NCBI GenBank assembly: GCA_902806415.1
Contig: CADCWN010000015.1
Coordinates: forward strand, 57,229 to 121,228
Length of the DNA: 64,000 nucleotides
From: an uncultured Thermomicrobiales bacterium
Lineage (GTDB): Bacteria > Chloroflexota > Chloroflexia > Thermomicrobiales > CADCWN01
Reading direction: 5' to 3'
A program made the position numbers and the translations under genes. The notes beneath the pieces are model-generated. The model did not search any database and was not told the DNA's origin. It saw nothing but the letters and a program-made list of their open reading frames with translations. Positions 5,244-54,160 of the stretch are shown in pieces. How positions within the stretch are numbered: position 1 is the stretch's first letter; each line of letters opens with the position of its first letter.

Positions 5244-5433
5244 AACGAGCCGACCGCCTCAATTCTAGCAGTTTCTTTCGAGCACACGATATGATAGGGG
5301 GGAAAAGTCGGTGCTGTCTCAATTCGTCACTCGTCATTCACTTGGAAAGCTGACCCGGCGCACCCGGCGGCGTATACTTCCCGGCAGCACGATCGATAGC
5401 CTCGTTCACAACGCAAGGCAAGGGCAAGGCACC

Positions 5434-6024
5434 ATGAACACTTCCCTGCGGATGACCTCCGCCGACCTGGCGAATTTCCCCGATGACGGCAAGCGACGCG
5501 AGATTATCGACGGGGAGTTGTACGTGTCGACGCAGCCGCACTGGTATCACCAAGTCCTCTGCGCCCGCTTCGGCCAATTTCTGGGCGAGTGGGGCGATGA
5601 GTCCGGTCGCGGTCAGGTCGCCGTCGCGCCGGGGCTGATCTTCGCGGAGGACGACGATGTCGCGCCGGACGTTGTCTGGGCCAGCCGGGAGCGGCTGGCG
5701 CGGATTCTCGAAGGCGGGAAGCTCTATGCCGCGCCCGAGTTGGTGATCGAGGTGCTGTCGCCGGGTCGGAAGAATATCGCGCGCGACCGCGAGACGAAGC
5801 TGAAACTGTATGCCCGCCGCGATGCCGACGAATACTGGATCGCCGACTGGCCTCGACACGCCGTCGAGATCTACCTCCGCGCGGGCGACACCCTCACGCT
5901 CGCCGAGACACTCGGCCCCGGCGACACACTGACGACGCCACTCCTGCCTGGCTTCGCCGTGGCCCTCGATCGGCTCTTCGCGGGGTTCCCCTTCGCCGAG
6001 GCCGTGGGGGAGGGCGAAGGATAA
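5434..6024 (+). CDS. Uma2 family (DUF820) endonuclease
   Basis: …DDGKRREIIDGELYVSTQPHWYHQ…APDVVWAS…APELVIEVLSPG…DRETKLKLYARRDADEYWIAD… I trimmed to ATG 5434. The upstream 41 codons of the track ORF translate a heptamer-repeat half site. Confidence 0.85.
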   Translation: MNTSLRMTSADLANFPDDGKRREIIDGELYVSTQPHWYHQVLCARFGQFLGEWGDESGRGQVAVAPGLIFAEDDDVAPDVVWASRERLARILEGGKLYAAPELVIEVLSPGRKNIARDRETKLKLYARRDADEYWIADWPRHAVEIYLRAGDTLTLAETLGPGDTLTTPLLPGFAVALDRLFAGFPFAEAVGEGEG

Positions 6025-6388
6025 GAGAAGCGGCCCTCACCCCCGCCGCCTCCGGATGAACCGGATTTATCCTGCTGCAAGTCAGGACAATATGCGGGCG
6101 GCACCCCCTCTCCTGATTCCAGGAGAGGAGGGAAGCCATTGCGGGTCTTTTGGCCGACGGATATGTCGCAGTCATCCCCACCAACACGTTCGACCACTTC
6201 CAGAAGCATTCGCCAGGCACCGTCCCTCCCTTGAAATGGGGGTATCCAATCTCATGCGCCGTCACCGCGCCGCCGAGTACAATACCCCCTTTGGCGGGCG
6301 ACCACGCCCACAGCAGCAGTTCGCCACATCGCCATCGCCAGGAGCGCCGCAGGGCGCGCTCGATAGCCACTCATGGGGGAAGAAGCTG

Positions 6389-7444
6389 ATGGCCCGGACC
6401 GCATCCCAGACCGTGCTCGTCACCGGCGGCGCGGGGTTCCTGGGGATTAACTTGCTGCGCTACCTGCACGCGCGCGGTTACGACCTCGTGTCGCTCGACA
6501 TGGCCGATTTCGATTACCCGGATATGCGCGACAAAGTGTTCGTCGTCAAGGGCGACATCCGCGACCGCGCGACCGTCGAGCGCGCGATGAAGGGGGTCGA
6601 TCTCGTCGTCCACGGGGCGGCGGCGCTGCCGCTCTATTCCGAGGAGGATATCTACACCACCGATGTGGTCGGCACCCGGCTGATCCTCGACGTCGCGCGG
6701 CAGCACGGCATCGCGCGCGCCGTCCACGTCTCCTCCACCGCCGTCTACGGGATTCCCGACCATCACCCGCTGGTCGAGGAGGACAAATTGGACGGCGTCG
6801 GCCCCTACGGCAAGGCGAAGATCGAGGCGGAGGAGGTCTGCCTCGAATTCCGCAAGAAGGGGCTGGTCGTGCCGATCATCCGCCCCAAGTCGTTCGTCGG
6901 CCCGGAGCGGCTGGGCGTCTTCGCCCTCTTCTACGATTGGGCGCTTAATGGGCGCAACTTCCCGATGATCGGCAACGGCAAGAACCGCTACCAGTTCCTC
7001 GACGTGGAAGACCTCTGCGCGGCGATTCACCTCTGTTTGACCCTCCCCGCCGAGCGGGCCAACGACACCTTCAACATCGGCGCGGAGGAATTCACCACGA
7101 TGGCCGAGGACTACCAGGCGGTCCTCGACAAGGCGGGCTTCGGCAAGCGGATCATCGGCTTCCCTGCCGAACCGGCGATCTGGGGCCTGCGCTTCCTCGA
7201 ACTGCTGCGCATCTCGCCGCTCTACAAATGGGTCTACGAGACGGCCTCGAAAGATTCGTTCGTCTCGATCGACAAGGCGAAGCGCCAGCTCGGCTTCAAG
7301 CCGCAGTATTCCAATAAGGATGCGCTGCTCCGCAACTTCGCCTGGTATATCGAGCACCGCGATCAGTTCGCCAGCCAGTCCGGGGTCTCCCACCGCGTCC
7401 CCTGGAAACAGGGCGCGCTCGGGCTGCTGAAGCGGGCCTTCTAG
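6389..7444 (+). CDS. NAD-dependent epimerase/dehydratase family protein
   Basis: MARTASQTVLVTGGAGFLGINLLRYL…YGKAKIEAE… shows a Rossmann GxxGxxG and a YxxxK. I trimmed to ATG 6389 (GGGGGA upstream). The first 111 codons of the track ORF are read-through. Confidence 0.9.
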   Translation: MARTASQTVLVTGGAGFLGINLLRYLHARGYDLVSLDMADFDYPDMRDKVFVVKGDIRDRATVERAMKGVDLVVHGAAALPLYSEEDIYTTDVVGTRLILDVARQHGIARAVHVSSTAVYGIPDHHPLVEEDKLDGVGPYGKAKIEAEEVCLEFRKKGLVVPIIRPKSFVGPERLGVFALFYDWALNGRNFPMIGNGKNRYQFLDVEDLCAAIHLCLTLPAERANDTFNIGAEEFTTMAEDYQAVLDKAGFGKRIIGFPAEPAIWGLRFLELLRISPLYKWVYETASKDSFVSIDKAKRQLGFKPQYSNKDALLRNFAWYIEHRDQFASQSGVSHRVPWKQGALGLLKRAF

Positions 7445-7471
7445 GCAACTATTACCCGACAAGATCACAAT

Positions 7472-7505
7472 ATCGGGGCGATCATAGTAGTATGATCGCC
7501 CCGAT
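7472..7505. terminator. 15-bp perfect hairpin, bidirectional terminator candidate
   Basis: ATCGGGGCGATCATA, GTAG loop, TATGATCGCCCCGAT. It lies between the convergent epimerase (+) and the 7546..8010 ORF (-). Confidence 0.6.
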
Positions 7506-7545
7506 CCATAGGAAGGTTATCAGCGACAAAGCAAATGATTTGCCG

Positions 7546-8010: not shown

Positions 8011-8076
8011 AGTATGAGCAAGTACTGTTACGTTCTTCTTTGCTTCTTCACCGGGCTGTAGCTTCCAGGGTTTGTT

Positions 8077-8699: not shown

Positions 8700-8711
8700 G
8701 GCCCCTCCGGG

Positions 8712-8815
8712 GAGTGACGAGTGACGAGTGACGAGTGACGAATGGGAACGTGACGGAGGTCATACATCTTGAGAGTCCTCCCGCGAACCTTATTCGTCAC
8801 TCGTCATTCATCATT
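8712..8815. repeat. heptamer-array hairpin element (locus B)
   Basis: (GAGTGAC)x4 at 8712..8739. The inverse arm ATTCGTCACTCGTCATTCATCATT lies at 8792..8815. The thiM stop (8804..8806) lies inside the right arm. Confidence 0.85.
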
Positions 8816-9607
8816 AATCTTGACTTCTGCAACACCCCGCTGGCCGAGGGCGGCGACCTCATCGATCAAGCGAGCGCGGAAGGTGCCGGGGCCGGGGTCG
8901 CCAGCGGCGGCGCGCTCGGCGGCGAGGCCGTAGGTGCCGAGGGCCAGCGCGGCCTGGGTCACGGGATCACCACCGGCGGCCAGGAAGATGCCGATCGCGG
9001 CGGTCGCCATGCAGCCGGAGCCGGTGATCCGCCCGAGGAGCGGGTGACCGTTGTGGACGGCGAGCGTTTGTCCACCGCCGACAACGATATCGATCGCACC
9101 GGTGACCGCGACCGCGACCCCGAAGCGCGCCGCCGCAGCCCCGGCGACGGCGCGCGGATCTTCCCCGCCGACCGCATCGACGCCGCACATCTGGCCTGAG
9201 CCGACGAGCGCGCCGATCTCGCCGCGATTACCACGCAGCACCGTGATCGGCAGTTCGGAGAGGAGGCGCAGGGCGCTCTCGGTGCGGAACGCCGTCGCGC
9301 CCGCGCCGACCGGATCGAGGACGATCGGCACCCCGCGCGCGGCGGCGGCGCGCCCCGCCAGCAGCATCGCCTCGATCTCGGCCCGCGAGAGGGTGCCGAT
9401 GTTCAGCGCCAACGCCCCGGCCAGCGCCGCCATCTCGGCGGCCTCCTCGGGCGCGTAGGCCATCACCGGCGACGCGCCGAAGGCGAGTGTGACGTTGGCA
9501 ACATCGTTGGTGACGACGATATTGGTGATGTGGTGGATCAGCGGCACCCGCTCGGCCACGCGCGCCAGGGCCGCCGCCGCTTCAGTGCTGAAATCGATGC
9601 CACTCAT
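8804..9607 (-). CDS. thiM: hydroxyethylthiazole kinase
   Basis: …PLIHHITNIVVTNDVANVTLAFGASPVMA…IVLDPVGAGATAFR…TGSGCMATAAIG… is ThiM-like over its full length. Confidence 0.9.
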   Translation of the reverse strand: MSGIDFSTEAAAALARVAERVPLIHHITNIVVTNDVANVTLAFGASPVMAYAPEEAAEMAALAGALALNIGTLSRAEIEAMLLAGRAAAARGVPIVLDPVGAGATAFRTESALRLLSELPITVLRGNRGEIGALVGSGQMCGVDAVGGEDPRAVAGAAAARFGVAVAVTGAIDIVVGGGQTLAVHNGHPLLGRITGSGCMATAAIGIFLAAGGDPVTQAALALGTYGLAAERAAAGDPGPGTFRARLIDEVAALGQRGVAEVKINDE

Positions 9608-9754: not shown

Positions 9755-12448
9755 CTACGCCTCCACGCTCCCGCTCACACTCCGCGCCTCATCCTTCGCC
9801 CCGGACACTTTTTGCTTCAACTCATAGAGCTTCGTGATCGCCTCCAGCGGCGAGAGCGATTCGACATCGAGGGCGCGCAGTTCCTCCACCACCGGGTCGG
9901 GCGCGCCGAAGAGGGAGAGTTGGAACTGGGGCGGCGCGGCGACGGGGGCGGCGCGGCGACCACCGGTGCGGCGCGGGGCGCGCTCGCCGCCACCTTCGAG
10001 GTCGGCCAGGATCTCGCCCGCGCGACGGACGACCGCGCGCGGCATCCCGGCCAGACCGGCGACGTGGATCCCGTAGGAACGGTCGGCCCCGCCGGGGACG
10101 ACGCGCCGCAGGAAGACGACCCGATCGCCCTCTTCGAGCACATCCATCCGCTCGTTCTGCACGCGCGGCAGGATGTCGGCCAGCGCGGTCAACTCGTGAT
10201 AGTGCGTGGCGAAGAGGGTGCGGCAGCCGAGGCGCGGCGTGTTGTGGATGTACTCGCTGACGGCCCGCGCGATCGAGAGGCCGTCGTAGGTGCTGGTGCC
10301 GCGCCCGATCTCGTCGAGGACGATCAGGCTGCGGCGCGTGGCCGAGTTGAGGATCGCGGCCATCTCCAGCATCTCGACCATGAAGGTGCTCTGCCCCGCC
10401 GCCAGGTCATCCTGCGCGCCGATCCGGGTGAAGATCCGATCGACCAGGCCGATCTCGGCGCGGTCGGCGGGGACGAACGCGCCGATCTGCGCCAGCAGGA
10501 CGATCAACGCGACTTGCCGGAGATAGGTGCTCTTGCCGGCCATATTGGGGCCGGTGATGATCACGACCTGGCGCTCGGCGGTGTCGAGATTGGTGTCGTT
10601 CGGCACAAACCCCTCGCTGGCGACCGCCAGCGATGCCTCCACCGTCGGGTGCCGCCCGCCCTCGATGCAGACGATCGGCTCCGGGTCGTCGTTGAGCGTC
10701 GGGCGGACGTAACGGCGCTCGACCGCGACCGTCGCCAGCGCGGCGAAGACATCCAGGTGGGCCAGCGCCTCCGCCGCGCGCATGACATACGGCGCCGCGC
10801 CCGCGACCCGGCCCACCACCTCGCGATAGATCGTCCCCTCCAGCGCCGCGATCCGCTCCTCCGCGCCGCTGACCAGCGTCTCGTACTCTTTCAGCTCGGG
10901 CGTGATGTAGCGCTCCGCGCCGACGAGGGTCTGCTTGCGGATGTAATCGTCGGGGATGGCGTCGCGGTTGGTGTGGCTGATTTCCAGGTAGTAACCGAAG
11001 ACCTTGTTGTAGCCGACCTTCAGCGAGCGGATGCCGGTGCGTTCGCGCTCCGTCCGCTCCAGCCCGGCGATATATGCCTTCGCCTCGCGGGCTTTCTCGC
11101 GCAGGTCGTCGAGGTCGGGCGCGAACCCGGTGCGGATCGACGGCACCTCGGGGCCGAGCGCCGCCGGGGGATCGTCGGCGATCGCCGCGCCGATTGTCGC
11201 CACCAGGTCGTCGAGGCGCGCGGCGCGCAGCGGCGGCAGCCAGGGCGCGAGCGGCCCGCCTGCCCCATCCTCACTAGGAACATCGGCGATCGCCGCCAGC
11301 AGATCGGGCAGGCGGCCGAGCGAGCGCGCCAGGGTGGCGAGATCGCGCGGGGTCGCCGCGCCGGTGACCGCCCGATTGATCAGCCGCTCCAGATCGCCGA
11401 CCCCGCCGAGCAGGGGCGTGATCCGGGCGCGCAGGAGGGCGTCGCGCGCGCAGAGCGCCACCGCCTCCTGCCGTTCAATCAGCGGCGCGAGCTCGACCAG
11501 CGGCTGCCCGAGCCAGCGGCGCAGGAGCCGCCCGCCCATCGGCGTCCTGGTGCGGTCGATCGTCGCCAGCAGTGAGCCGCCGCGCCCGCCGCGACTCCCC
11601 TCGGTCAGTTCGAGGTTGCGCCTGGTTGCGGCGTCCAGGGGCATATAGGCGTCGGTGCTGTAACCGTGCAACTCGGTGATCTGGGCCAGGCCGTCGAGTT
11701 GCGTCGCGGCCAGGTATTGCAGCAGGGCACCCGCCGCACGGATCGCCAGCGGCTGCCCGCCGATCCCGAAGCCGTCGAGCGCGCCGACCGCGAAATGGTC
11801 GCGCAAGGCGTCCTCGGCGCGGTCGAGTCGCCACTCGCGCCCGTCGGTGCGGCTGGTGTAGGCACCGCTCGGCAGCCAGGGCGGCACGTTCCCATCCGGG
11901 TCGTCATCCTTCGTCAGCAGGATCTCCGCCGGGCCGAGCCGCAACAGTTCCTGCGCAATCGCCCCCTCGATCGCTTCGGTGTCGGCGCGGGTGAGTTGCG
12001 TGGCGGCGAACTCGCCGGTGGTGATGTCGGCGTAGGCGACACCGGCGCGCGCGCCCTCGACCAGCACGGCGGCGAGGTAATTGTTGGCGTGACCGGGGAG
12101 CATACTCGGCTCGACGACGGTGCCGGGGGTGACGACGCGCGTGACGCGGCGCTCGACGATCTCCCGCCCCTTCGTCGGCTGGCCGATCTGCTCGCAGACG
12201 GCGACCTTGTACCCGGCAGCGATCAGCTTGGCGATGTGGGCCTCGGCGGAGTGGTACGGCACCCCGGCCAGTGGCAGCTTCTGCCCCCGCCCCATCTCGC
12301 GCGCGGTGAGGGTGATGTCGAGGATGCGCGCGGCGATCTTGGCATCCTCCTCGAACATCTCGTAAAAGTCGCCGAGACGGAAGAAGAGGAGGACATCGGG
12401 GTACTGGCGCTTGATCGCCAGGTATTGCTGCCGGATCGGCGTCGTCAT
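9755..12448 (-). CDS. mutS: DNA mismatch repair protein MutS
   Basis: 897 aa. MTTPIRQQYLAIKRQYPDVLLFFRLGDFYEMFEEDA…, Walker A in IITGPNMAGKSTYLRQ, then …STFMVEMLE…DEIGRGTSTYDG…. Confidence 0.97.
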   Translation of the reverse strand: MTTPIRQQYLAIKRQYPDVLLFFRLGDFYEMFEEDAKIAARILDITLTAREMGRGQKLPLAGVPYHSAEAHIAKLIAAGYKVAVCEQIGQPTKGREIVERRVTRVVTPGTVVEPSMLPGHANNYLAAVLVEGARAGVAYADITTGEFAATQLTRADTEAIEGAIAQELLRLGPAEILLTKDDDPDGNVPPWLPSGAYTSRTDGREWRLDRAEDALRDHFAVGALDGFGIGGQPLAIRAAGALLQYLAATQLDGLAQITELHGYSTDAYMPLDAATRRNLELTEGSRGGRGGSLLATIDRTRTPMGGRLLRRWLGQPLVELAPLIERQEAVALCARDALLRARITPLLGGVGDLERLINRAVTGAATPRDLATLARSLGRLPDLLAAIADVPSEDGAGGPLAPWLPPLRAARLDDLVATIGAAIADDPPAALGPEVPSIRTGFAPDLDDLREKAREAKAYIAGLERTERERTGIRSLKVGYNKVFGYYLEISHTNRDAIPDDYIRKQTLVGAERYITPELKEYETLVSGAEERIAALEGTIYREVVGRVAGAAPYVMRAAEALAHLDVFAALATVAVERRYVRPTLNDDPEPIVCIEGGRHPTVEASLAVASEGFVPNDTNLDTAERQVVIITGPNMAGKSTYLRQVALIVLLAQIGAFVPADRAEIGLVDRIFTRIGAQDDLAAGQSTFMVEMLEMAAILNSATRRSLIVLDEIGRGTSTYDGLSIARAVSEYIHNTPRLGCRTLFATHYHELTALADILPRVQNERMDVLEEGDRVVFLRRVVPGGADRSYGIHVAGLAGMPRAVVRRAGEILADLEGGGERAPRRTGGRRAAPVAAPPQFQLSLFGAPDPVVEELRALDVESLSPLEAITKLYELKQKVSGAKDEARSVSGSVEA

Positions 12449-12577: not shown

Positions 12578-13045
12578 TCAGCGCCGGAAGTCGCGCACAT
12601 GCCGCCCGAAGAGGCTCAACTCCTCCGATACTGTCGCCACCTCGGCGGCGCTGGGGCCGTGCCACTCGCCAGCGGGCAGGTGGCACAGGGCGGCGGTGTC
12701 GCGATTGTAGAAGTAGGCGTGTGCCGCGACCTCCCGGCCATCGTCGGTCGCGGCAGCGACGACCCGGCGCAGGTAGATCGAGCCGGTCGGATCGGATGGG
12801 GCATACCCTTCGAGATCATCCAGGATCGCCAGGACCCGCGCCAGCTCGGTCGGCTCGATCAACAGCAACTCGCCGCGCACCGGATCGTCGCCCTCGGCCA
12901 GCGCCGGGAACGGGCCGACATCGTAGAGCCGCCCACGGATCGTCGCCGGGGTGGCGGAGCGCACCGCGGCGGCGATCAAATGGTGATTCGTCTGCCTGCG
13001 CTTGAGCGTGCCATAGACGAAGCAAAATTGCGGCCCAACGACCAT
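12578..13045 (-). CDS. gamma-glutamylcyclotransferase (GGCT/AIG2-like) family protein
   Basis: MVVGPQFCFVYGTLKRRQTNHHL…IRGRLYDVGPFPALAEG…VRGELLLI… I trimmed to ATG 13045, preceded by GGGAGGAGG. Confidence 0.8.
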   Translation of the reverse strand: MVVGPQFCFVYGTLKRRQTNHHLIAAAVRSATPATIRGRLYDVGPFPALAEGDDPVRGELLLIEPTELARVLAILDDLEGYAPSDPTGSIYLRRVVAAATDDGREVAAHAYFYNRDTAALCHLPAGEWHGPSAAEVATVSEELSLFGRHVRDFRR

Positions 13046-15658: not shown

Positions 15659-16270
<612 letters not shown>

Positions 16271-16273
16271 GCT

Positions 16274-16410
16274 GAACGCGGAAGTCGGAGCGCGGAGCGC
16301 GGAATAAGAAGCGAGGACCGGGCGGGGGGCACATGTTGTGCCGCCCCGCCGCATTATTCGGCAGGGCCATCACCCCTTGTTCCGCGTTCCGACTTCCGAC
16401 TTCCGCGTTC
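16274..16410. repeat. heptamer-array hairpin element (locus C) with nested GC hairpin
   Basis: The arms 16274..16307 and 16377..16410 are 29/34 complementary by my alignment. An inner hairpin GGCGGGGGGCACA/TGTGCCGCCCCGCC lies at 16321..16350. The element starts 4 nt after the sodA stop. Confidence 0.85.
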
Positions 16411-16489
16411 CACAGCCCCTCTGGCACCATCCTTGCGCTGCCTGCGGGGAAGACCTCGTCGTTCTAGCAAAGACCAGAAGGAGGATCTT

Positions 16490-17950: not shown

Positions 17951-18044
17951 CCGTCGCGCCCCTTCCTAACACCCACCACATCATCACGCGCCCGACTCTC
18001 TCCGGCGGGTGCCCATTTTACCAGCAACGCGGCGGGCGTGGGCA

Positions 18045-18100
18045 CGATCCCCTACAATCTCGCCGTGGCGTGAGCGCGATCCCCCACAGTCTCGCCGTGG
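18045..18100 (+). promoter_or_regulatory. tandem 24-nt direct repeat (32-nt period) upstream of the sigma-factor gene
   Basis: CGATCCCCTACAATCTCGCCGTGG (18045..18068) and CGATCCCCCACAGTCTCGCCGTGG (18077..18100) are 22/24 identical. Copy 1 contains TACAAT. Confidence 0.4.
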
Positions 18101-18138
18101 TGATGGGGCGACGCGAGCAAAGGTGCATCGGAGGCGCG

Positions 18139-18993
18139 ATGAGCGGGGCACGTAGCGGGCGCGATCCCGCCGAGGGTGTCTTCGCGGGCTTCCTCGATCG
18201 CCACTGGGCGGAGGTGGTGCGCTTCTTCCGGCAAGGGCTCTACCGCGAGCGTGACCGGCGCAACGCCGAGGACTGCGCCCAGGAAGCGTTCATCAAGCTG
18301 GCGCGGCGGTATCGCGATGACACCGCCACCGTGCGCGCGGTCGTCGGCCAGGGTCGGGCAACGGGGCGACCGCTCGCCATCGCTGAACTGGCGCGGCACC
18401 TCGCGTGCGACCCCGCCGAGGCCGAGGTGCGGGCGCGGCGCGCCGTCGTGAGCGGCTGGCTCCGCGTCAGCGAGACGGAAGGAGGGACAGCCTTTGACGG
18501 CGCGATCACCTTCGGGTCGGCACCGCTCGTCCTCGATCTCGCGCCGCTGGCGGCGATGCGCTGGACAACCTACCGCAATGTCCTGGCCGATTATGGGCGA
18601 CGGCGGATCGCGGCGGACAACGCCCGCGCGGGCGACCTGGCGGATCTCGTGGCAACGGGCCAGGAGCCGCGCGATCCGCAGCCCGGCCCCGAGCGCGCGA
18701 CCGCAGCGACGGAGCTACACGCACAGATCGCCGCCTGCCTGGATACGCTGCCGCACGCCGAGCGCACGGTCCTGATCCTGCATTACTTCTATGGGCTGCG
18801 CTTCCCGGCGATCGTCACAGTGCCGGGCGTGCCGGAACTCCTCGAACCGCCGGGCATCGCCGAGGGGCGCTCCGCGACCCAACTGGTGCAACGGCTGAAA
18901 GATCTGGCCAAGGCCGGGCGGCGGCAGATGCGACGACACTGCCCGCATCTGGCCGACTTCCTCGTGGGCGGGGGCGACGATGACGAGCGGTGA
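18139..18993 (+). CDS. sigma-70 family (ECF-like) RNA polymerase sigma factor with insertions
   Basis: Region-2-like …AEDCAQEAFIKLARRY… and …RWTTYRNVLADYGRRR…, and region-4-like …LDTLPHAERTVLILHYFYGLRF…QLVQRLKDLAKAGRRQM… I trimmed to ATG 18139. Confidence 0.65.
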   Translation: MSGARSGRDPAEGVFAGFLDRHWAEVVRFFRQGLYRERDRRNAEDCAQEAFIKLARRYRDDTATVRAVVGQGRATGRPLAIAELARHLACDPAEAEVRARRAVVSGWLRVSETEGGTAFDGAITFGSAPLVLDLAPLAAMRWTTYRNVLADYGRRRIAADNARAGDLADLVATGQEPRDPQPGPERATAATELHAQIAACLDTLPHAERTVLILHYFYGLRFPAIVTVPGVPELLEPPGIAEGRSATQLVQRLKDLAKAGRRQMRRHCPHLADFLVGGGDDDER

Positions 18994-22637: not shown

Positions 22638-22658
22638 CCCTCTCTCCGGTTTATTGTT

Positions 22659-22823
22659 GGCAGTCGGCAGTCGGCTGGTAGTCGTCGGTCGTCGGTCGTC
22701 AGTCCTCAGAAGAGCGTCCGTAGTCCGTAGAAGGGTAGCTGACCTGCGGCCCTACTCGACCACTGGCCCACTGGCTCACTCGCACCACCCTCTGACGACT
22801 GACGACTGCCGACCGACGACTCG
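22659..22823. repeat. composite heptamer-array element (locus D)
   Basis: RGTCGTC-type array, AGTCCTC-AGAAGAG, AGTCCGT-AGAAGGG, TGGCCCA/CTGGCTC units, then a complementary CTGACGA array. It fills the whole gap between the carbamoyltransferase start and the upp stop. Confidence 0.9.
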
Positions 22824-23495
22824 CTACTCGCCCGTGTGGAAGACACGATCCCCCGCGTCGCCGAGGCCGGGGCAAATATATCCCTGCTCGTTCAATTCGC
22901 GGTCGAGCGCCGCGACATAGATCTCTACGTCGGGATGTGCCTCGGTCAGCTGCGCCACGCCATAGGGCGCGGCGACGATGCCGATATAGGTGATCCGCTC
23001 CGCGCCGACCTCTTTCACCAGATCCACCGCGCTCACCGCCGAGCCACCGGTCGCCAGCATCGGGTCGACGACGATGCAATGCGCGGCCTGCCCGCTCCGC
23101 ATCGCACGGTTGTAATACGGGACCGGGCGTAGCGTCTCCTCGTCGCGGTAGAGGCCGAGGTGCCAGACGCGCGCCTCCGGCAGCAGGCGCAGCAGCGGCT
23201 CGACCATCGCCAACCCGGCGCGCATGATCGGCACGATCGCGATCGGTTGCGCCACTTTCACCCCGATCATCGGCTCCAGCGGCGTCACGATCGGTCGCTC
23301 GGCCAGTGCCAACCCGGCCAGCGCCTCATAACCGACGAGGGTCGTCAACTCGCCGAGCAACTCGCGGAAGCGCGACGGTGCCGTCTCGGTGGCACGCAGC
23401 AGAGTCAGTTGCACCGCGATCAGCGGGTGCGTCGCCACATGCAGGCGCGGCTGGCGCAACGCCTCCGCGCGCGTCGGCTGCTCCCGACCGGCCAT
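22824..23495 (-). CDS. upp: uracil phosphoribosyltransferase
   Basis: …HPLIAVQLTLLR…IVPIMRAGLAM…VDPMLATGGSAV…YICPGLGDAGDR… I trimmed from the 534-aa track ORF to ATG 23495. Confidence 0.92.
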   Translation of the reverse strand: MAGREQPTRAEALRQPRLHVATHPLIAVQLTLLRATETAPSRFRELLGELTTLVGYEALAGLALAERPIVTPLEPMIGVKVAQPIAIVPIMRAGLAMVEPLLRLLPEARVWHLGLYRDEETLRPVPYYNRAMRSGQAAHCIVVDPMLATGGSAVSAVDLVKEVGAERITYIGIVAAPYGVAQLTEAHPDVEIYVAALDRELNEQGYICPGLGDAGDRVFHTGE

Positions 23496-23808
23496 CGGTC
23501 GCGGTCGCGCGCCCTCAACCACCGCTACCCCTCCATATACGCGCCATTTTGGATACGCGTCACTGAGGCCCAAATACCCGCGCATCGGTCGCCGCTGGCG
23601 GTGCTCAGGCTCCCGACCGGTGCCGGAAGACCGGTAGTATACAACACCGCTATTCCGGCGATGTGGTGCCGTTTTCGGGGCGGCACGCGATGTGCGCCGC
23701 CCCTCCCGCTGGGGAACGTACTCGCGCTGGGCGCGCGTCCTCCCCATAGGTCTGGGCCACTGGAGCTCTATACCGTTCGCTGGAACTGTGCAATCGGGGG
23801 AGAAGCCA

Positions 23809-39897: not shown

Positions 39898-39908
39898 ATC
39901 AGTACTCC

Positions 39909-39996
39909 AGTCCGTAGTCCGTAGAAGGTTCGTAGGTATGCTAATGCTTTACTTTTCTGCAGTCCCTCTACGGACTACGGACTACGGACTACGGAC
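39909..39996. repeat. heptamer-array hairpin element (locus E)
   Basis: AGTCCGT AGTCCGT AGAAGGT, an AT-rich loop, then CCTCTAC (GGACTAC)x3 GGAC. The rimI stop TAG (39982..39984) lies inside the right arm. Confidence 0.9.
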
Positions 39997-40593
39997 CGCC
40001 CCATTCGGCGAATCATGCCACCGCGCCAGCCTCAGGCCGAGGGTGGCGCGCAACCCGGCCAGGCTTTCGAGGGTCGGGCTTTCGTTGAGGGCTGGCGACC
40101 ACATGATGTGAGCGTCCTCGCCATTGTCGCTGTAATAACGCTTGCGGAGGCCCTGCCGCGTGAAACCGTACTTCTCGTAGAGCGCCAGCGCGCTGGCGTT
40201 GGAGACGCGCACCTCCAGCGTCACCCAGCGCGAGCGGCGGCGGATCGCCTCATCGATCATCGTCACGAAGAGGAGTTCGCCGAGCGACCGCCCGCGCTGC
40301 TCGGGCAGGACACCGATCGTGGTGATGTGCGCCTCGTCGAGCATATTCCACATCCCGCCGAAGCCGAGAATCGGCGGTTTCGCGGGGTCCGCGCGGCGCA
40401 CGAACGGCAACAGGTGCAGCCCGCCGCGCGGGCGCTCGTCCGGCACGCCCGTATGCGGCGGTCGCCAGCGCACGACGATGTAGTAGTTGTGCTCGGTGTC
40501 GCGCAGTTCGCGCCGATAGGCGCTGCTCGGCCAGGGGTTGGTGAAGCAGCGGCGCTCCACCTGGCTGACTTCCTGGACATCGTCTTGGGTCAT
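39982..40593 (-). CDS. rimI: ribosomal-protein-alanine N-acetyltransferase RimI-like GNAT
   Basis: MTQDDVQEVSQVERRCFTNPW…ITTIGVLPEQRGRSLGELLF…LEVRVSNASALALYEKYGF… The track ORF (to 40725) adds about 44 aa that translate repeat locus F. The start is set to ATG 40593, with GTG 40605 as an alternative. Confidence 0.8.
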   Translation of the reverse strand: MTQDDVQEVSQVERRCFTNPWPSSAYRRELRDTEHNYYIVVRWRPPHTGVPDERPRGGLHLLPFVRRADPAKPPILGFGGMWNMLDEAHITTIGVLPEQRGRSLGELLFVTMIDEAIRRRSRWVTLEVRVSNASALALYEKYGFTRQGLRKRYYSDNGEDAHIMWSPALNESPTLESLAGLRATLGLRLARWHDSPNGAVRSP

Positions 40594-40624: not shown

Positions 40625-40700
40625 GGTAGATAGTCGGTAGTCGGTAGTCCGTAGAAGGGCGGCGACTCTGCTTCCCTATCCGCCCACTCGCCAGTGGCTA
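40625..40700. repeat. heptamer-array element (locus F)
   Basis: GGTAGAT AGTCGGT AGTCGGT AGTCCGT AGAAGGG CGGCGAC…CCCACTCGCCAGTGGC. It lies between the tsaB stop and the probable rimI start. Confidence 0.85.
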
Positions 40701-42247: not shown

Positions 42248-44323
42248 ATGGCAGCGAACCGAGCAATCACCGCCGACGATCTGTACGCGCTCCAATTCGT
42301 TGGCGACCCGCGCGTCTCGCCCGACGGGGCGCGCGTCGCCTTTGTCGTCACGGTGGCCGACCGGGAGCGCAACGACTATCGCTCGCGGATTTGGATCGTC
42401 CCGATCGATGGCAGCGCACCGCCGCGCCCGCTCACCGCCGGGCCGGGCAAGGACACCAGCCCGCGCTGGTCGCCCGACGGCCGGCGCATCGCCTTCCTGT
42501 CCGATCGCGAGCCGGCGACCTTGCCGGATGGCGTCGAGCGCGGCGAGAAGGCGAAGCCGCAAATCTGGACCCTCGATCTGGCCGGCGGCGAGGCGCGGCA
42601 AGTCACCGCCCTACGGCAGGGCACGAGCGATCCCGCCTGGTCGCCCGATGGCGCGCGGCTCGCCTGCACCTCGCAGGTCGGCGGGCCGGACGACGAGCCG
42701 ATCGACACCGGCAAATCGGCGACCGAGCGGGCGCGGGAGCGCGCCGACCGGGTCCGCGAGATCACCACCCTGAAGTACAAGTTCGACGGCCTCGGCTACC
42801 TCGACGGCAAGCGGCGGCACCTCTTCGTCGCCGATGTACCAGCCCCCGGCGCGTCGCCCGCCGCCGCGCACCAGCTCACCGACGGCGACCAGAACGACAG
42901 CCAGCCGGCGTGGTCGCCGGACGGGACGCGGCTCGCGTTCGTCTCCTATCGCGAGCCGGACGAGGATGTAACCTTCCGATCCGACATCTGGACGCTGACC
43001 CTCGCCGACGGCGTGTGCCGCAAGCTGACCGGCGGGGGCGGCGCATCGACCGCCCCTGCCTGGTCGCCCGATGGCGGGCAGATCGCCTATCTGGGCCATC
43101 AGGAGGGCGAGGGCGCGGCGGCGATGACCCGCCTCTGGACCGTCGGGACGGGCGGCGACGGGCCGCCGGTCTGCCGCAGCGCCGACTTCGATCGCGACCT
43201 CGGCAATAGCACCCTCACCGACCAGACCTTGCCGGGCGGCCAGGAAGGGCCGGTCTGGTCGCTCGATGGCCGCGCGATCCTCGCCCTGGTCGGCGACGGC
43301 GGGGCGACGGGGCTGCGGCGCTTCGGGCTCGACGGTAGCGAGCCGGAGGTCGTGGTCTGCGGCGAGCGGGTTGTGACTGCCTTCGCGACTGCGGGCGGGG
43401 GCGCGCGGCTGGTCTTCGCCGCGACCGACCCCGCCACACCCGCCGAACTCTTCCTACTGGATGGGGAAGGCGACGAGCGGGCGCTGACGGCCTGCAATGC
43501 CGCCCTGCTGCGCGAGCGCGCGGTCGCCCTGCCCGAGTCGTTCCGCTTCAGCGGCGCGCGGGGCGACGCGATCGATGGCTGGCTCGTGCGCCCGCTCGGC
43601 GCGGCGGCGGGCGCGGCGGTGCCGCTGGTCGTGGCGATCCACGGCGGGCCGCACGCGCAGTACGGCTTCGCCTTCTTCCACGAGTTCCAGATCCTGGCCG
43701 GGAAGGGCTACGCGGTCTTCTACTGTAACCCGCACGGCGGCACCGGGCGCGGCGACGCCTTCGCCAAGGCGATCCTCCGCGACTGGGGCGCGCTCGCGAT
43801 GGCTGACGTGATGGCCGGGCTCGACGCGGCCCTCGCGCGCGGCGGCTGCGACCCGGCGCGGCTCGGCGTCACCGGCGGCTCGTATGGTGGGTTCCTGACC
43901 AACTGGATCACCAGCCACACGACGCGCTTCGCCGCCGCCGTGACGCAACGGTCCTATTGCAACGCCCTCGGCTACTTCGGCGTGGATGACATCGGCGCGA
44001 TCAGCGATGTGGCCGAGTTGGGCGGCCATCCCTGGGAAGTCCCCGAGCGTTATCTCGCCCTCTCCCCGATTCTGCACGTCGGCAACGTCACCACGCCGAC
44101 CCTGATCGAGCACCAGGCCGAGGACTATCGCTGCCCACTCAGCCAGGCCGAGCAGTGGTACGCCGCCCTGAAGAAGCGCGGCGTCCCGACCAAGCTCCTG
44201 ATTTATCCCAATGAGAGTCACGGGATGTCGCGCAACGGCAAGCCGCGCCACCGGATCGAGCGCCTGATGCACAACAGCGCCTGGTTCGATCAGTGGCTCG
44301 GGGGGAGTAATCGTGAGTCGTGA
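42248..44323 (+). CDS. S9 family serine peptidase with N-terminal beta-propeller
   Basis: Repeated …SPRWSPDG.R.AF… propeller motifs. The catalytic region is …GVTGGSYGGFLTNW… I trimmed to ATG 42248. The stop lies inside repeat locus G. Confidence 0.9.
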   Translation: MAANRAITADDLYALQFVGDPRVSPDGARVAFVVTVADRERNDYRSRIWIVPIDGSAPPRPLTAGPGKDTSPRWSPDGRRIAFLSDREPATLPDGVERGEKAKPQIWTLDLAGGEARQVTALRQGTSDPAWSPDGARLACTSQVGGPDDEPIDTGKSATERARERADRVREITTLKYKFDGLGYLDGKRRHLFVADVPAPGASPAAAHQLTDGDQNDSQPAWSPDGTRLAFVSYREPDEDVTFRSDIWTLTLADGVCRKLTGGGGASTAPAWSPDGGQIAYLGHQEGEGAAAMTRLWTVGTGGDGPPVCRSADFDRDLGNSTLTDQTLPGGQEGPVWSLDGRAILALVGDGGATGLRRFGLDGSEPEVVVCGERVVTAFATAGGGARLVFAATDPATPAELFLLDGEGDERALTACNAALLRERAVALPESFRFSGARGDAIDGWLVRPLGAAAGAAVPLVVAIHGGPHAQYGFAFFHEFQILAGKGYAVFYCNPHGGTGRGDAFAKAILRDWGALAMADVMAGLDAALARGGCDPARLGVTGGSYGGFLTNWITSHTTRFAAAVTQRSYCNALGYFGVDDIGAISDVAELGGHPWEVPERYLALSPILHVGNVTTPTLIEHQAEDYRCPLSQAEQWYAALKKRGVPTKLLIYPNESHGMSRNGKPRHRIERLMHNSAWFDQWLGGSNRES

Positions 44324-44427
44324 GTCGTGAGTCGTGAGGGAGGCGTTGCTGGAAAAAGGGCGCCCGGCTTCAGCAAATCTTCTCGCGATTCGTGACCCAC
44401 GACTCACGACTCACGACTCACGACTCG
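44312..44427. repeat. heptamer-array hairpin element (locus G)
   Basis: (CGTGAGT)x3.9 at 44312..44338 and the complementary (CACGACT)x4 at 44398..44425, separated by a 59-nt loop. Confidence 0.9.
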
Positions 44428-44679
44428 TCCGGCCACAACAGCAGCGACAACGCCGCCACGACCAGCACGATGAGGGTCACAATCGCCAGCGTCAGCACTC
44501 TGCCCTCCCCGACTGAGCATCCCCAGAGCTTGTGCGCCAGTGGGTGTCGACGCTGGCGTATGAGCCCCAAATGTTCATCACCAAGCGGCAGCGCCGCGCG
44601 GGGTGAAGTATAGTCAGCATTGGCTCACGCTATCGGGGGTGCCATTCGTCCGTCGCACTATCGGCATCGAGGGATCACT

Positions 44680-47753: not shown

Positions 47754-48524
47754 CTAGACCCTCCTCGGCGGATAGCTCACCCGAGCAGAACCGGCGCACA
47801 CGCGCGACAGGGGCGCACCATATTGACGCCGAGTACGCTGGAAAGCTGTCCTCGCACAAGTGGGGAGCGGCACTGTAGGCTCATGCACGAAGGACGCTCA
47901 AACCTTTCTTGACAAGGCAAGGTGATGTATTGCATACGCCCTGTTCGAGACCGCGAAGTGCTCGTGGGTTGAGGAGCGCGGTGGTGCGTCGGCCCGGAGT
48001 GCTGCTCGCGCCATGCCCTGGTTAGGCGGCATACGCGCATCCTTTCCCGCCAAGCGATGCTCACCGATGGCACAGTAACACACACCAACCGCCCGGTCTC
48101 CCCTGCTTGCCGCTCCTATATTCGAACGTTAGGAGAACCCCTGGCGTGGGTTGGGCGCACGCGCTAGCCCCTATCCAGCAGGTCGAGCGGGAGCAGCAGG
48201 TCAAGCTGCAGGAGACCGAGATCCTGCGCCGCGAGACCGAGCGGCAGTGGATCAAGACCCTCGCCGCCGCCGAGAGCAGCCGCCACTCCCTGGAAGCGGG
48301 CGGGCGGGCGGCGGCAGACGCGCTGATGAACGATGTCACCAGGATGGTGGCGCAGGCCCTGGGCGCCCCCCGCCTTGCTGTCGCGTTGTCGCGCAGCCTG
48401 GGCGGGTGCGCGGTCCCCGGAGTCACAGCGCCGGGTCAGCACGCGGGCGACACCCGCGTGCGAGAGACCCCACCCACCGGCCTCCCCCGTCCACTGGCCC
48501 TCTCGCCCACTCGCCCACAACCCC

Positions 48525-49332: not shown

Positions 49333-49406
49333 GAATGACGAGTGATGGGTGAAGTACGAAGTACGGGCTGGCACTGGCCCACTGGCCCATTCGTCATTCG
49401 TCGTTA
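49333..49406. repeat. heptamer-array element (locus H)
   Basis: GAATGAC GAGTGAT GGGTGAA GTACGAA GTACGGG CTGGCAC TGGCCCA CTGGCCC ATTCGTC ATTCGTC. GAATGACGA (49333..49341) pairs with TCGTCATTC (49391..49399). Confidence 0.85.
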
Positions 49407-51637: not shown

Positions 51638-51902
51638 CCCTCGCCCCCCTCTCTTGCGATCACGGTCGTTCGAGCGCGGTCAGGAACTCGGCGCTGGCGG
51701 CGACGATCTGCGCCTGGGCCTCGGCGTGGTCCCCAGGCCGTCGGCGTCTACTTGCTGGCAGGTAGACGCCTTCATCACCGTCACGCGGGGCGCGACACTC
51801 GTGGCGGACACCCGGCGTATCCGCTGACCCTCGCGGTGGTCGCGCTCGGCGCGGTCATCGCGAGGGTCATGGCGCTGGTGCGCGCCCGGCATCCTTGAGC
51901 GA

Positions 51903-52448
51903 TTAGGGAAAGAGGTGTGCCACGTCGGCGGTGATGTCGGGGAAAAGTGGGCAGACGAGGGTGTCGCCAGCGCGCAGGGGCGGTGCCTCGTCGTACCCTC
52001 TCGCGCCGAGGGTGAGCGGTTGCACCGTCTTGGCGATCGGGTCGGCGACCCAGTAGAAGCGGACACCCTCGCGCGCGTAGAGGGTTTTCTTCCAGCCCAG
52101 GTCGTGGTCGCGCGTCCTCGGCGACAGGATTTCGATGACGAGATCGGGTCCCCCAGCAATGTACTGCGGCTCGATGATCTCCAGGCGATCATTGCTGATA
52201 AACAGCAGATCGGGCTGGACAACCTGGTAGCGTCCGAAATGCACGTCAGTCGGGGCGGCGAACATCCGGCCCCATCCCGCGTCTTCCGCGCGAAAGAGCA
52301 GGTTGCCGAACCGCGCCGACACTCGTTGGTGATAAGTTGCCGGTGCCGGGCTCACGATCAATTCTCCGTCCGCAAGCTCATAACGCTTGCCGTCATCCGG
52401 CAACTGCGCCAAATCGTCGTAGGTGAAGAGCGGCGTCTTGACAATCAT
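51903..52448 (-). CDS. Uma2 family (DUF820) endonuclease
   Basis: …LPDDGKRYELADGELIVSPAPATYHQ…VQPDLLFIS…GPDLVIEILSPRT…DLGWKKTLYAREGVRFYWVAD…. Confidence 0.85.
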   Translation of the reverse strand: MIVKTPLFTYDDLAQLPDDGKRYELADGELIVSPAPATYHQRVSARFGNLLFRAEDAGWGRMFAAPTDVHFGRYQVVQPDLLFISNDRLEIIEPQYIAGGPDLVIEILSPRTRDHDLGWKKTLYAREGVRFYWVADPIAKTVQPLTLGARGYDEAPPLRAGDTLVCPLFPDITADVAHLFP

Positions 52449-52794
52449 CGTGGTGAGCCTTTCTCGCTGCGATGGCGCGAGGATGGGTGATCTCTAAACC
52501 CTGCGCGACAGTGCCATTATCGCCCGTGGTGGTTCCCCGCGCCAGCGCGTCGCCCCTCGTTGCATCCTTTCGCGCCGTCAACGAGTCGGCCCTGGCGTAG
52601 ATTGCGACTCACCCCGTCGATAGTTAGTCGTTGTTCAGCGACGCTAACGGCAACTACATTAGGGCGACGACGATGGGAGCGGGCGCACGATCGCGCTGCG
52701 TCATGGTGATGGCCTGCACCTCAGCCGTGAGGGGGCAACCTGGCCCGCCGCCACCTATACGCAAATCCGCCACGACTGACAGCTACCTTAACGC

Positions 52795-53559
52795 CTACTC
52801 GACCGTATCGGGGGCGGGTGGTTCGCCGAGATCATAGGTCGCGCCGCCCTTAGCCACACGCCGGAGCGGTGGCGCGGCGATGAGCTCTTCTCTCGCCGCT
52901 GCCGCCTCGATCGCCGCGAGGTCGGGGATAACCATTCGCCCCTCGTCCGCCACCCCGACCGTGCGCGTGCGACCCTGCCGCCAGAGCTGCGCGGTGAGCG
53001 CGCAGACGACCGCGTCGAGTTGATGTTCACTGGCCTCCGGGTGGTCAAGGCCGGGGATGAGCGGCTGGAGCGCGTTATGAATCCGCCGTCGCCCGAGTTG
53101 GGTGCGCTTTCCAGTGGTGGGCAACCCGAGCAGGCGCAGGGTGGCGAAGGGGTAGACCTCTAGCGGCGCATAGCCGACCGCACGCAAGGTGGCGGCGAGG
53201 CGGAAGCCGCGCCGCGCCAGCACCTTGATCAGCGCCGTCGCCAGGATCGGCACTTTCATCCGCAACAGTTCGCGCTCCAGCTCGCGGCTGCGCGTCCCCG
53301 GATCGTGGCGACAGGGGCACTCATCATCGAGGCAGCAGCGCCCGCGCGGCAAGGTCAGCGGCGCGTTGATCGCCACGATCGCCGCTGCGCCCGCGTGGGC
53401 GACCACCGCCATGATCTCGTCGTCCCCGCTAACCGCCGCGAGAAAGTCGAGCGCACCGTCGCGCAAGATGGCGACGCCGGTCTCGCGATGCGGCACCCCG
53501 GCGAGGTCGATCCCGACACAGACGATCGATTGTGGCGGTGGCAGGAGCAGGTATGGCAT
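52795..53559 (-). CDS. DUF429 (predicted RNase H-like nuclease) family protein
   Basis: MPYLLLPPPQSIVCVGIDLAGVPHRETGVAIL…AAIVAINAPLTLP…HQLDAVVCALTA… I trimmed to ATG 53559. The upstream part of the track ORF translates a repeat. Confidence 0.75.
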   Translation of the reverse strand: MPYLLLPPPQSIVCVGIDLAGVPHRETGVAILRDGALDFLAAVSGDDEIMAVVAHAGAAAIVAINAPLTLPRGRCCLDDECPCRHDPGTRSRELERELLRMKVPILATALIKVLARRGFRLAATLRAVGYAPLEVYPFATLRLLGLPTTGKRTQLGRRRIHNALQPLIPGLDHPEASEHQLDAVVCALTAQLWRQGRTRTVGVADEGRMVIPDLAAIEAAAAREELIAAPPLRRVAKGGATYDLGEPPAPDTVE

Positions 53560-53649
53560 GGGGAGAGTATAACGCGGCGCGCGGCCAGGGAACAAATGTT
53601 CTTTGTTTGGGACAGCCCAATATGGGAACGGTGGGGACGGCCCCCTCCC

Positions 53650-53690
53650 CGCCGCCCCGGCGGCGACCCTCCCGTGAAAGGGAGGGTGAG
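53650..53690 (+). repeat. second full copy of the CGCCGCCCCGGCGGCGACCCTCCC double-hairpin repeat
   Basis: Identical 24-mer, then loop GTGAAA, then GGGAGGGTGAG. Confidence 0.85.
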
Positions 53691-53716
53691 TATGTTGACG
53701 CCGCACCGCTCACTGT

Positions 53717-53996
53717 CTACCGCAGATACGGCCCGAGATCGATCGCGCGATCCTCTTCAGCGGCGAGATACACTCCATACGATACCGCGACGACATCGCG
53801 CGCGAGGAGTGCGCCGCTGAGCGGTTCGCGGTCGTCGGCGACAGTTTTCGCAGAGGTCTTGTAGCTCCGCCGTCGGCGAGTAGAGCCCCGCGATCGACAC
53901 CTCGACCCCGTGGACGAGCGCATAGTTCTCCAGGTGCAGCCGCGCGGCAAACCCCGCGCCGACTATGCCGATGCGGACGTGGCGGCGTGCGGGCAT
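53717..53996 (-). pseudogene. N-terminal fragment of a Gfo/Idh/MocA oxidoreductase (frameshifted, truncated)
   Basis: MPARRHVRIGIVGAGFAARLHLENYALVHGVEVSIAGLYSPTAE (53757..53996 frame) continues in another frame as …KTVADDREPLSGALLARDVVAVSYGVYLAAEE…*. No catalytic or C-terminal domain follows. Confidence 0.6.
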
Positions 53997-54013
53997 GGGG
54001 CCGCCTTCGGGGG

Positions 54014-54160
54014 AGTCGTCGGTCGTCAGTCGTCAGTCGCCAGAAGAAAATGTGCAGGCCGCAGCCCGTAGAAGGGCGGCTTCATGCTCACACTCGGCAC
54101 TCGGCACTCGGCACTTCTCTCTGACGATTGACGATTGACGACCGACGACTGACGACTGCC
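54014..54160. repeat. composite heptamer-array element (locus I)
   Basis: AGTCGTC GGTCGTC AGTCGTC AGTCGCC AGAAGAA … AGCCCGT AGAAGGG … (CACTCGG)x3 … GATTGAC GATTGAC GACCGAC GACTGAC GACTGCC. The module order matches locus D. Confidence 0.9.

Follow-up and report, generated by a model that had tools for sequence, protein, structure and literature searches.

Paired heptamer arrays form a dispersed repeat family at gene boundaries in an uncultured Thermomicrobiales bacterium

The DNA analysed here is a stretch of 64,000 nucleotides (hereafter the window) from an uncultured member of the Thermomicrobiales (Chloroflexota), covering positions 57,229 to 121,228 of contig CADCWN010000015.1 (GenBank assembly GCA_902806415.1), with a guanine plus cytosine (GC) content of ~68%. 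Its MutS protein (9755-12448, - strand) is 100% identical to one encoded on the metagenome contig ENA ERZ1300058 NODE_7 and has its nearest named relatives in Thermorudis, Sphaerobacter and Thermomicrobium, at 60-64% identity. A rough gene map based on GC at third codon positions (GC3) gives 82% coding sequence. The spacers of this map carry the elements that are the subject of this work, namely arrays of tandem 7-nt units, which at many sites face each other as two complementary arms with the potential to form a hairpin. According to a Pfam scan covering the genes that flank the elements, the neighbours are chromosomal housekeeping genes, including thiM, mutS, sodA, upp, pyrB, tsaB, rimI, tsaD and an S9 peptidase gene. 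A preliminary description of the window, made from the letters alone, had listed ten such sites as a dispersed family of gene-boundary elements.

For a systematic count, an array was called where at least 13 of 14 bases equal the base one period downstream, and periods 4-12 were scanned. The window contains 10 period-7 arrays and only 0-1 at any other period, and 50 second-order Markov resamplings of the window yielded a mean of 0.1 period-7 arrays. As a background control we used 160 other-bacterial loci (2.29 Mb), collected via MutS and TsaD with identities to the query of at most 56% among the matches listed, and therefore serving as control and not for orthology; these hold 18 period-7 arrays, which corresponds to ~0.5 per 64 kb and is ~20-fold below the window. 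The same window arrays were recovered independently by Tandem Repeats Finder, and the longest measures no more than 55 nt. Further, no array in the window is gene-internal on the GC3-based map, as all are placed either between genes or across the final codons of one. The dispersed period-7 arrays at gene boundaries are thus real, being equally common neither in resampled sequence nor inside the genes of the window. The window does belong to a short-read metagenome contig, and an origin of the arrays as chance patterns or assembly artefacts was considered for this reason, but the excess of 10 over 0.1 and the presence of the family in independent assemblies from JGI, ENA, NCBI and IMG/VR refute this explanation, the modest array length (all within 55 nt) also speaks against it, and we assign it practically no probability.

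The sites in the window are given below, where fold z is the z-score of the fold energy against dinucleotide shuffles, and where the spacer type refers to the direction of the two flanking genes.

2648-2668, not in the preliminary list; divergent spacer; ACT-type array (GACGACT)x3 followed by CCCCGGAGG (Shine-Dalgarno) and an ATG at 2682; partner arm not found, fold z ~0.
5322-5341, site A; divergent spacer between a NAT gene (-) and a Uma2 gene (+); half site ATTCGTCACTCGTCATTCAC, flanked on both sides by promoter-like hexamers.
8709-8816, site B; co-directional spacer between thiM and a hypothetical gene, genes on the - strand; (GAGTGAC)x4 against a GTCACTC-type arm, with the thiM stop inside one arm and the other arm ending at a Shine-Dalgarno sequence; arms 22 nt, 91% complementary, fold z -4.6 and -6.2.
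16271-16411, site C; co-directional spacer downstream of sodA; GGAAGTC/GGAGCGC against GACTTCC arms around a GC-rich hairpin; arms 26 nt, 85% complementary, fold z -9.1.
22655-22823, site D; co-directional upp to pyrB spacer; composite element with (GGCAGTC)n, (RGTCGTC)n, CAGAAGA and (GTCCGTA)2 GAAGGG in its left half and, after the centre, (CCACTSG)n, CTCT and (GACGACY)n; arms 31 nt, 90% complementary, fold z -3.8.
39905-39999, site E; co-directional rimI to tsaD spacer; (AGTCCGT)x2-AGAAGG against (CTACGGA)x4, with the rimI stop falling within an arm and the tsaD Shine-Dalgarno at the base of the stem; arms 20 nt, 95% complementary, fold z -6.5.
40625-40700, site F; co-directional tsaB to rimI spacer; single array (TAGTCGG)x3.4 followed by CCGTAGAAGGG, adjoining on the sense strand the rimI Shine-Dalgarno and start; complementary arm not found, fold z ~0.
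44304-44430, site G; convergent spacer between the S9 peptidase gene (+) and an open reading frame (ORF) for a 50-aa membrane protein (-); (CGTGAGT)x4 against (ACGACTC)x4, with both converging genes ending GAG TCG TGA and their stops inside the arms; arms 24 nt at 100% or 33 nt at 91% complementarity, fold z -8.0.
48491-48518, site H; degenerate CCACTSGC run of period 8 beside the stop of a short-chain dehydrogenase gene; no structure, fold z ~0 to -1.
49333-49406, site I; divergent spacer; GAATGACGAGTGATG...(GAAGTAC)x2 against CATTCGTCATTCGTCG, a weak decayed pair, fold z -1.3.
54010-54165, site J; co-directional spacer; composite homologous to site D, with the stop of a GFO/IDH gene at its edge and the downstream Shine-Dalgarno and start following; (AGTCGTC)x4, CAGAAGA, CCGTAGAAGGG, (CACTCGG)x3.6, CTCT and (GACGAYT)x6 in that order; arms 31 nt, 90% complementary, fold z -6.5.

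Of the ten sites in the list, six (B, C, D, E, G and J) are paired, with arms of 20-33 nt that are 85-100% complementary, 147 Watson-Crick pairs among 163 aligned arm positions, and fold z-scores from -3.8 to -9.1, all folding better than dinucleotide shuffles. The other four (A, F, H and I) are single-arm or degenerate, the membership of site H in the family is doubtful, and the list was incomplete in that the array at 2648-2668 had been overlooked. Site A is identical to the arm of site B at 8792 over 19 of 19 nt, just as described earlier. The heptamer elements of the window are a dispersed family at gene boundaries with a hairpin potential well above that of shuffled sequence.

The units are variants of a single theme, RGT(C/G)NNN, and include AGTCGTC, AGTCGTG, GGTCGTC, AGTCCGT, AGTCGGT, AGTGACG, AGTGCCG and AGTACGA. 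The earlier statement that units differ between sites is correct as far as these variants go, but they all follow the one theme and constitute a related pool that is reused across loci and genomes. At all paired sites, both in the window and in relatives, AGT-type arrays are followed by a centre and then by ACT-type arrays, so that the AGT-type half can pair with the ACT-type half into a stem of 20-35 bp. This layout is its own reverse complement, and the convergent polarity thus belongs to the element itself, independent of how the genes are oriented. The last unit of an AGT-type array is often a purine unit of the AGAAG type, previously termed a signature, which pairs with CTTCT where the opposite arm begins. 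As described for the AGTCCGT-AGAAGGG signature, CCGTAGAAGGG occurs four times in the window, always on the + strand, compared to 0.76 copies expected, and four copies were reached in 2 of 100 shuffles. The orientation of this signature relative to transcription had been considered fixed, which is refuted by its cognate GTCCGTAGAAGAG in the related locus L082, where it shares its strand with the flanking genes, as opposed to the other strand in the window. Across relatives, the AGAAGG signature is found on either strand relative to genes.

Two simple readings of the units were rejected upon inspection: GANTC of the CcrM type as a conserved core, as most units do not contain it, and a function of the arrays in providing stop codons in all frames, as several units have no stop triplet on either strand.

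With regard to genes, the elements take up the dispensable part of a spacer, which typically starts at or within the stop codon of the upstream gene and ends shortly ahead of the Shine-Dalgarno sequence of the downstream gene. In agreement with the preliminary description, arrays contain the stop codons of thiM, rimI and the S9 peptidase gene, and also that of the small membrane ORF. At ~11 sites from the window, relatives and phage-like contigs (described below), the ACT-type array ends 0-25 nt ahead of the Shine-Dalgarno sequence. A role as intercistronic terminators had been proposed for the elements. However, no U-tract follows any heptamer stem in the window and a consensus terminator scan placed no terminator there, while the same scan detected canonical terminators at other window positions (46904 and 49593). 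The only match of the scan within an element is a 5-bp stem with a T-run in the centre of site J. As U-tracts are lacking, the heptamer stems are not canonical terminators, and the location of sites E and F inside the tight tsaE-tsaB-rimI-tsaD cluster additionally argues against strong termination. The terminator proposal was hence abandoned. The elements match no catalogued RNA family, as Rfam returned no match at gathering thresholds in the window and, at E-values up to 1, none on any element. With respect to phase variation, the arrays are located between the stops and Shine-Dalgarno sequences of thiM, upp/pyrB, tsaB/rimI/tsaD and sodA and were not found in the reading-frame or promoter-spacer positions looked for, whereas strain-level polymorphism in unit number was found (L082, L083 and L084).

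The 50-aa ORF at site G (44418-44570, -) is unannotated, contains one hydrophobic helix and ends in ...ES*, like the S9 peptidase. In the related locus L170, a 69-aa ORF at the corresponding position overlaps the 3' end of the peptidase gene by 31 nt; in the window, element G keeps the two genes apart. Beside site D lies a 534-aa ORF (22824-24428, -), in which the uracil phosphoribosyltransferase match is confined to residues 332-532, the C-terminal 39%, and the N-terminal 330 codons have no family match; upp encodes 232 aa in the related locus L174. This ORF is probably over-extended or conceals a second gene.

One possible function of the arrays is that they serve as platforms for a sequence-specific protein on DNA or single-stranded RNA, with hairpins being secondary. 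Candidates would be a nucleoid or regulatory protein, or a factor of the S1, Csp or CsrA type such as that proposed for the TAACTGA repeats of Beggiatoaceae (PMC4679880). The RGT(C/G) core common to the units fits such a function, as do the ACT-type arrays placed directly before Shine-Dalgarno sequences or starts, including those of the single-arm sites 2648 and F and the phage-like contigs, and a similar placement of TAACTGA was reported by MacGregor 2015 (PMC4679880). Yet sites differ without constraint at four of the seven positions of the unit and strains differ in copy number, which a single specific binder would hardly allow, and the arms keep their complementarity, a property that a simple array of binding sites would not need. 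On balance, we regard a protein platform as quite unlikely.

Relatives were represented by syntenic loci retrieved via close homologues of MutS and TsaD, from lineages with 79-88% protein identity. The family is present in L082-85, L086/87, L168/169 and L176, and absent or nearly so in L170-172, L173, L174, L175 and L177. The 21 kb sampled of the relative GCA_963851995.1 hold one array, which is unrelated. The spacer at thiM carries a paired element in four lineages, of which the window uses the unit GAGTGAC, L082 GAAGTAC, L176 GAGTGCC and L086 a degenerate intermediate, with array length varying and the paired type being kept. A left arm from the window, L082 or L176 prefers its own right arm over those of other lineages, with binding energies for own versus foreign arms of -46 versus -27 to -30 and of -107 versus -40 to -67 kcal/mol, and accordingly the arms co-vary. 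At the rimI-tsaD spacer, the AGTCCGT arms of the window are replaced by a CGTGAGT/ACTCACG element in L168, and no element is present at this spacer in L170 and L177 (33-38 nt) or in L173 (74 nt); within the tsaB-rimI-tsaD cluster, spacers of relatives measure only 21-38 nt. The spacer upstream of Uma2 carries a paired CAAGGTC/GACCTTG element in L176. At site C, the central GC-rich hairpin is kept in L082 and L086, and heptamer arms exist in the window alone. Orthologous spacers thus change their units and retain paired arms, and some relatives are without the element.

Relatives also provide information on how arrays and elements change. The contigs L082, L083 and L084, originating from different samples, differ by 4-10 single-nucleotide polymorphisms over 22.6 kb, and one of their (GAGTCGT)n arrays has ~6, 3 and 4 units, respectively, with length differences of exactly 21 and 14 nt. 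Such whole-unit differences between near-identical contigs point to instability of the slippage type. Sites D and J can be aligned from end to end (~150 nt) with 75% identity, their centre outside the arrays included, and a profile search built from both found similar composites at three L082 spacers, from which it follows that modules and whole elements are common to loci and genomes.

Heptamer arrays of the same family were additionally found in viral data. An exact search of IMG/VR for (AGTCGTS)x3 matched seven contigs, including L181 (uncultivated viral genome 3300031471_000034) and L182 (3300031449_000105), both with a GC content of 66-69% and with source JGI metagenomes numbered near the one that yielded the relatives L087 and L168. 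These two contigs encode an HK97-type protease-capsid fusion, a tail protein and a terminase, and each carries 3-5 arrays of the family in 11-12 kb, including arrays right in front of Shine-Dalgarno sequences that reach 12 units. Between the capsid stop and the next gene, both have a paired element (L181 4437-4600, L182 3760-3890) in the order TAG-(TCGGGAG)n-TCGTCAGAAAGTC, centre, (CGACTCM)n, Shine-Dalgarno and ATG, with a 5' arm of 9 copies in L181 and of 3 copies in L182. This layout equals that of the host chromosome, including the CAGAA junction of sites D and J.

[quoted passage not shown] Homologous copies at unrelated loci (D and J), arms resembling inverted terminal repeats and the presence of the family in phage-like contigs would agree with this, and a DDE transposase gene is located near arrays in L176, with no shown link to the elements. 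Against it stand the flanks of D and J, which contain neither a target-site duplication nor a fixed terminal sequence, the identity of 75% between these copies, which are not near-identical within the ~210 kb of clade sampled, the persistence of an element at the same spacer while its unit changes, and array lengths that differ between the two arms and between strains. A MITE origin in this classical sense thus appears very unlikely to us.

Another alternative is that of selected cis-regulatory RNA, where the hairpins would stabilise upstream mRNA, provide RNase III sites or couple translation. In the coupling variant, a ribosome stopping in the 5' arm would open the stem and make the Shine-Dalgarno sequence accessible, with repeat number acting as a rheostat. 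The co-variation of arms at orthologous spacers, the stops within 5' arms together with Shine-Dalgarno sequences at the foot of the 3' arm, the elements in gene clusters without U-tracts, the same layout following the capsid gene of two phage-like contigs, and the hmw hairpin of Haemophilus influenzae with RNase III as a precedent are all in line with this idea. It is harder to reconcile with close relatives that vary in presence and absence at the same housekeeping spacers, with the decayed or single-arm copies (A, F, H, I and L086-B) and with the missing G-U bias on the sense strand, and coupling cannot apply to the one element in a convergent spacer (G) or to two in divergent spacers. We rate selected RNA regulators as rather unlikely, though second in rank. 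A wider version, in which host and phage would use a lineage-specific expression code of selected hairpin modules, we rate as unlikely. If it were true, hairpins of the order stop, (AGTNNNN)n, centre, (NNNNACT)n and Shine-Dalgarno would insulate, process or couple cistrons, a dedicated factor might read the RGTC core, and copy number changing by slippage would be a heritable rheostat, which could explain the heptamer repeats of cyanobacteria, Xanthomonas and Beggiatoaceae.

The best reading of the data is that of a lineage-specific family of mosaic repeat elements built from slippage-prone heptamer arrays. We find it reasonably probable that this family is a largely self-propagating repeat comparable to repetitive extragenic palindromic (REP) sequences and bacterial interspersed mosaic elements (BIMEs), with incidental or modest effects on operon expression. 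The analogy to REP/BIME had been suggested earlier and fits, as the elements are mosaics of array modules from a pool common to loci and genomes. The arrays would lengthen and shorten by slipped-strand mispairing, the complementarity of arms may be upheld by hairpin-templated correction or conversion, possibly in addition to selection for pairing, and elements would spread or swap between loci, mainly as self-propagating or neutral tenants of the genome. Since several elements lie within what look like operons and have no U-tracts, transcription would run through them and the RNA would fold into long stems. Such stems could be RNase III sites or barriers to 3' exonucleases that protect mRNA, or could alternatively couple translation through ribosome-dependent unmasking of the downstream ribosome-binding site. 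In either case the expression of neighbouring cistrons relative to each other might depend on them, tuned by the copy number of the arrays. The self-propagating repeat is ranked above selected RNA regulators on the grounds of the absent strand bias, the decayed and single-arm copies and the element-free relatives.

Several points weigh against this interpretation. Co-transcription and RNA folding in the cell are predicted, and RNA-strand-specific selection, considered as a candidate, left no signal: the stem mismatches display no G-U preference on the sense strand (4 versus 5 when G-U is compared to A-C), and fold energies are no better for the sense than for the antisense strand, so that a purely DNA-level phenomenon is equally compatible with the data. 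Neither target-site duplications nor fixed termini were found when the flanks of D and J were read by eye. Pairing is not obligatory, judging from the single-armed sites 2648, A and F and from an element in L082 that joins non-complementary arrays (GAGTCGT with ACGGACC). The clade sample amounts to ~210 kb in total, less than one whole genome. Finally, the presence of the family in phage-like contigs, where spare DNA is scarce, could indicate more function than a mostly neutral model would imply.

The REP/BIME sequences of Escherichia coli are extragenic, often intercistronic and hairpin-forming mosaics of few motifs in alternating orientation, and they shield upstream mRNA from 3' exonucleases. 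The REP itself is a single imperfect palindrome of ~35 nt with conserved sequence and a REP-associated tyrosine transposase (RAYT) as partner. The heptamer elements are alike in being extragenic, placed between cistrons and composed of mosaic modules (D, J and L082), and unlike in that their arms are variable 7-nt arrays with no conserved GTAG-headed palindrome of 20-40 nt.

A second, unrelated repeat family in the window (GTAGGGGCGTATTGCATACGCCC), consisting of palindromic GTAGGGGCG(C/T)ATTGCATACGCCC units, forms inverted doublets at 2460-2574 and 56335-56427 and has a partial copy at 47923-47941, with seven motif matches compared to 0.08 expected. At 56335, two arms of 24 nt with a complementarity of 100% are separated by 45 nt. 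Its GTAG head and its doublets make this second family resemble REP/REPIN more closely than the heptamer family does.

Tandem heptamers are known from cyanobacteria as short tandemly repeated repetitive (STRR) sequences, with units such as TTGGTCA and CAACAGT; the AGT contained in CAACAGT and CCCCAGT is also found in the units of the window. Mazel et al. 1990, as cited in PMC4692102, describe STRRs as tandem heptamers in non-coding DNA, often near start codons, CCCCAGT is a published unit (PMC4692102), and heptamer repeats of Nostoc have been treated separately (bioRxiv 10.1101/2022.06.06.494920). The elements can be called STRR-like, as had been proposed, in the sense of dispersed tandem heptamers in non-coding DNA, but they occur in another phylum and with other units, the published STRR heptamers not being among those of the window, and paired arrays, rare in Nostoc (PMC4692102), are dominant here.

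The closest published counterpart is found in Xanthomonas campestris and X. citri, which have ~185 intergenic GGGAATC arrays each (Rehm et al. 2015, PMC4692102), including 70-75 convergent inverted pairs with the potential for stem-loops or cruciforms. Array length differs between these two species, the single or paired type is usually kept, and most arrays are transcribed (PMC4692102). The paired-arm architecture is therefore not new for a high-GC genome, contrary to the preliminary description, which knew of no such family. Both systems share the high GC content and intergenic convergent heptamer pairs (here B, C, D, E, G and J). Xanthomonas uses one G-rich, G-quadruplex-capable unit genome-wide, as opposed to the many RGT(C/G)NNN variants without G-tracts in the window, and nested array types, unit turnover with co-varying arms and occurrence in phage-like contigs distinguish the elements described here.

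Other heptamer systems share single features with these elements. The (ATCTTTC)n repeat of H. influenzae hmw1A is transcribed, forms one arm of a long hairpin in the 5' untranslated region that is cleaved by RNase III, and tunes expression by repeat number (PMC12721329). Common to both is a heptamer array as arm of a long stable hairpin (predicted at 20-35 bp here), whereas hmw1A is a single adhesin contingency locus with a non-repetitive G-rich other arm, compared to elements dispersed beside housekeeping genes with arrays in both arms. In Beggiatoaceae, TAACTGA repeats are found a few nucleotides upstream of start codons, with 1 indirect repeat among 170 (PMC4679880), and Chloroflexus aurantiacus has dispersed (GATAGRA)n satellites (PMC6749651), which puts heptamer satellites on record for the Chloroflexota. 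Each of these genomes has a single unit, and co-varying paired arms or nested mosaics are described in neither paper. In many bacteria, no long simple-sequence repeats are more over-represented than heptanucleotides, according to Mrazek et al. 2007 as cited in PMC4679880. Full-text searches combining heptamer repeats with Chloroflexi or Thermomicrobia returned no account of such repeats in Thermomicrobia.

Paired heptamer arrays were also present in the background loci, in an Anaerolineales metagenome-assembled genome (MAG; L046, 11310-11360) and in a metagenome contig of 63% GC (L092, 2661-2796 and 5126-5175), where the units ATAGACC/GGTCTAT and ATAGACG/CGTCTAT resemble the (GATAGRA)n of C. 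aurantiacus, as well as in a MAG labelled Clostridia (L056, 7748-7894), where CAGCCAT and ATGGCTG arrays are paired. As these pairs have other units, the phenomenon is probably broad. What is new here is the diversified unit pool, the nested mosaics, the co-variation of arms at orthologous sites and the occurrence in phage-like contigs.

The over-representation of heptamers has been on record since 2007 and STRRs since 1990, and an accepted function or origin is still lacking. The clade represents a natural experiment in this regard, offering many related unit variants, orthologous spacers with changed units and arms that still match, sister lineages with and without elements, copy-number change between strains and copies in phage-like contigs. 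Based on these, comparative genomics and transcriptomics can be used to test how arrays arise, how their arms are matched and whether they affect operon expression, and the value of the family lies in this comparative leverage on an old question rather than in a new principle. On the practical side, arrays rewrite the last codons of genes, inflate ORF calls and are likely hotspots of error in the assembly and annotation of MAGs.

Three further repeats were noted. Between mutS and thiM, L082 contains a 20-nt tandem repeat, (TGCCCTTCAGGGGTACAGTG)n, at 12804-12844, which is also present in L083-L085 and absent from the window, and in which near-identical contigs deviate from each other by two units; the gene calls of L083-L085 place here an ORF of 231-239 aa with no Pfam match that may be spurious. 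In the window, a 34-nt inverted repeat (59621-59654 and 59707-59740; 88% complementary, 52-nt loop) lies upstream of a gene at 59816 for a BNR/sortilin-like protein of 1111 aa, and the interval 59613-59748 has a sub-threshold Rfam match to a plant microRNA precursor (37 bits, gathering threshold 100), which we take as generic hairpin similarity. Lastly, a 32-nt tandem repeat, GGCGTGAGCACGATCCCCCACAATCTCGCCGT, with 2.1 copies and 88% matches is found at 18035-18100, at the start of the ORF 18070-18993 (+).

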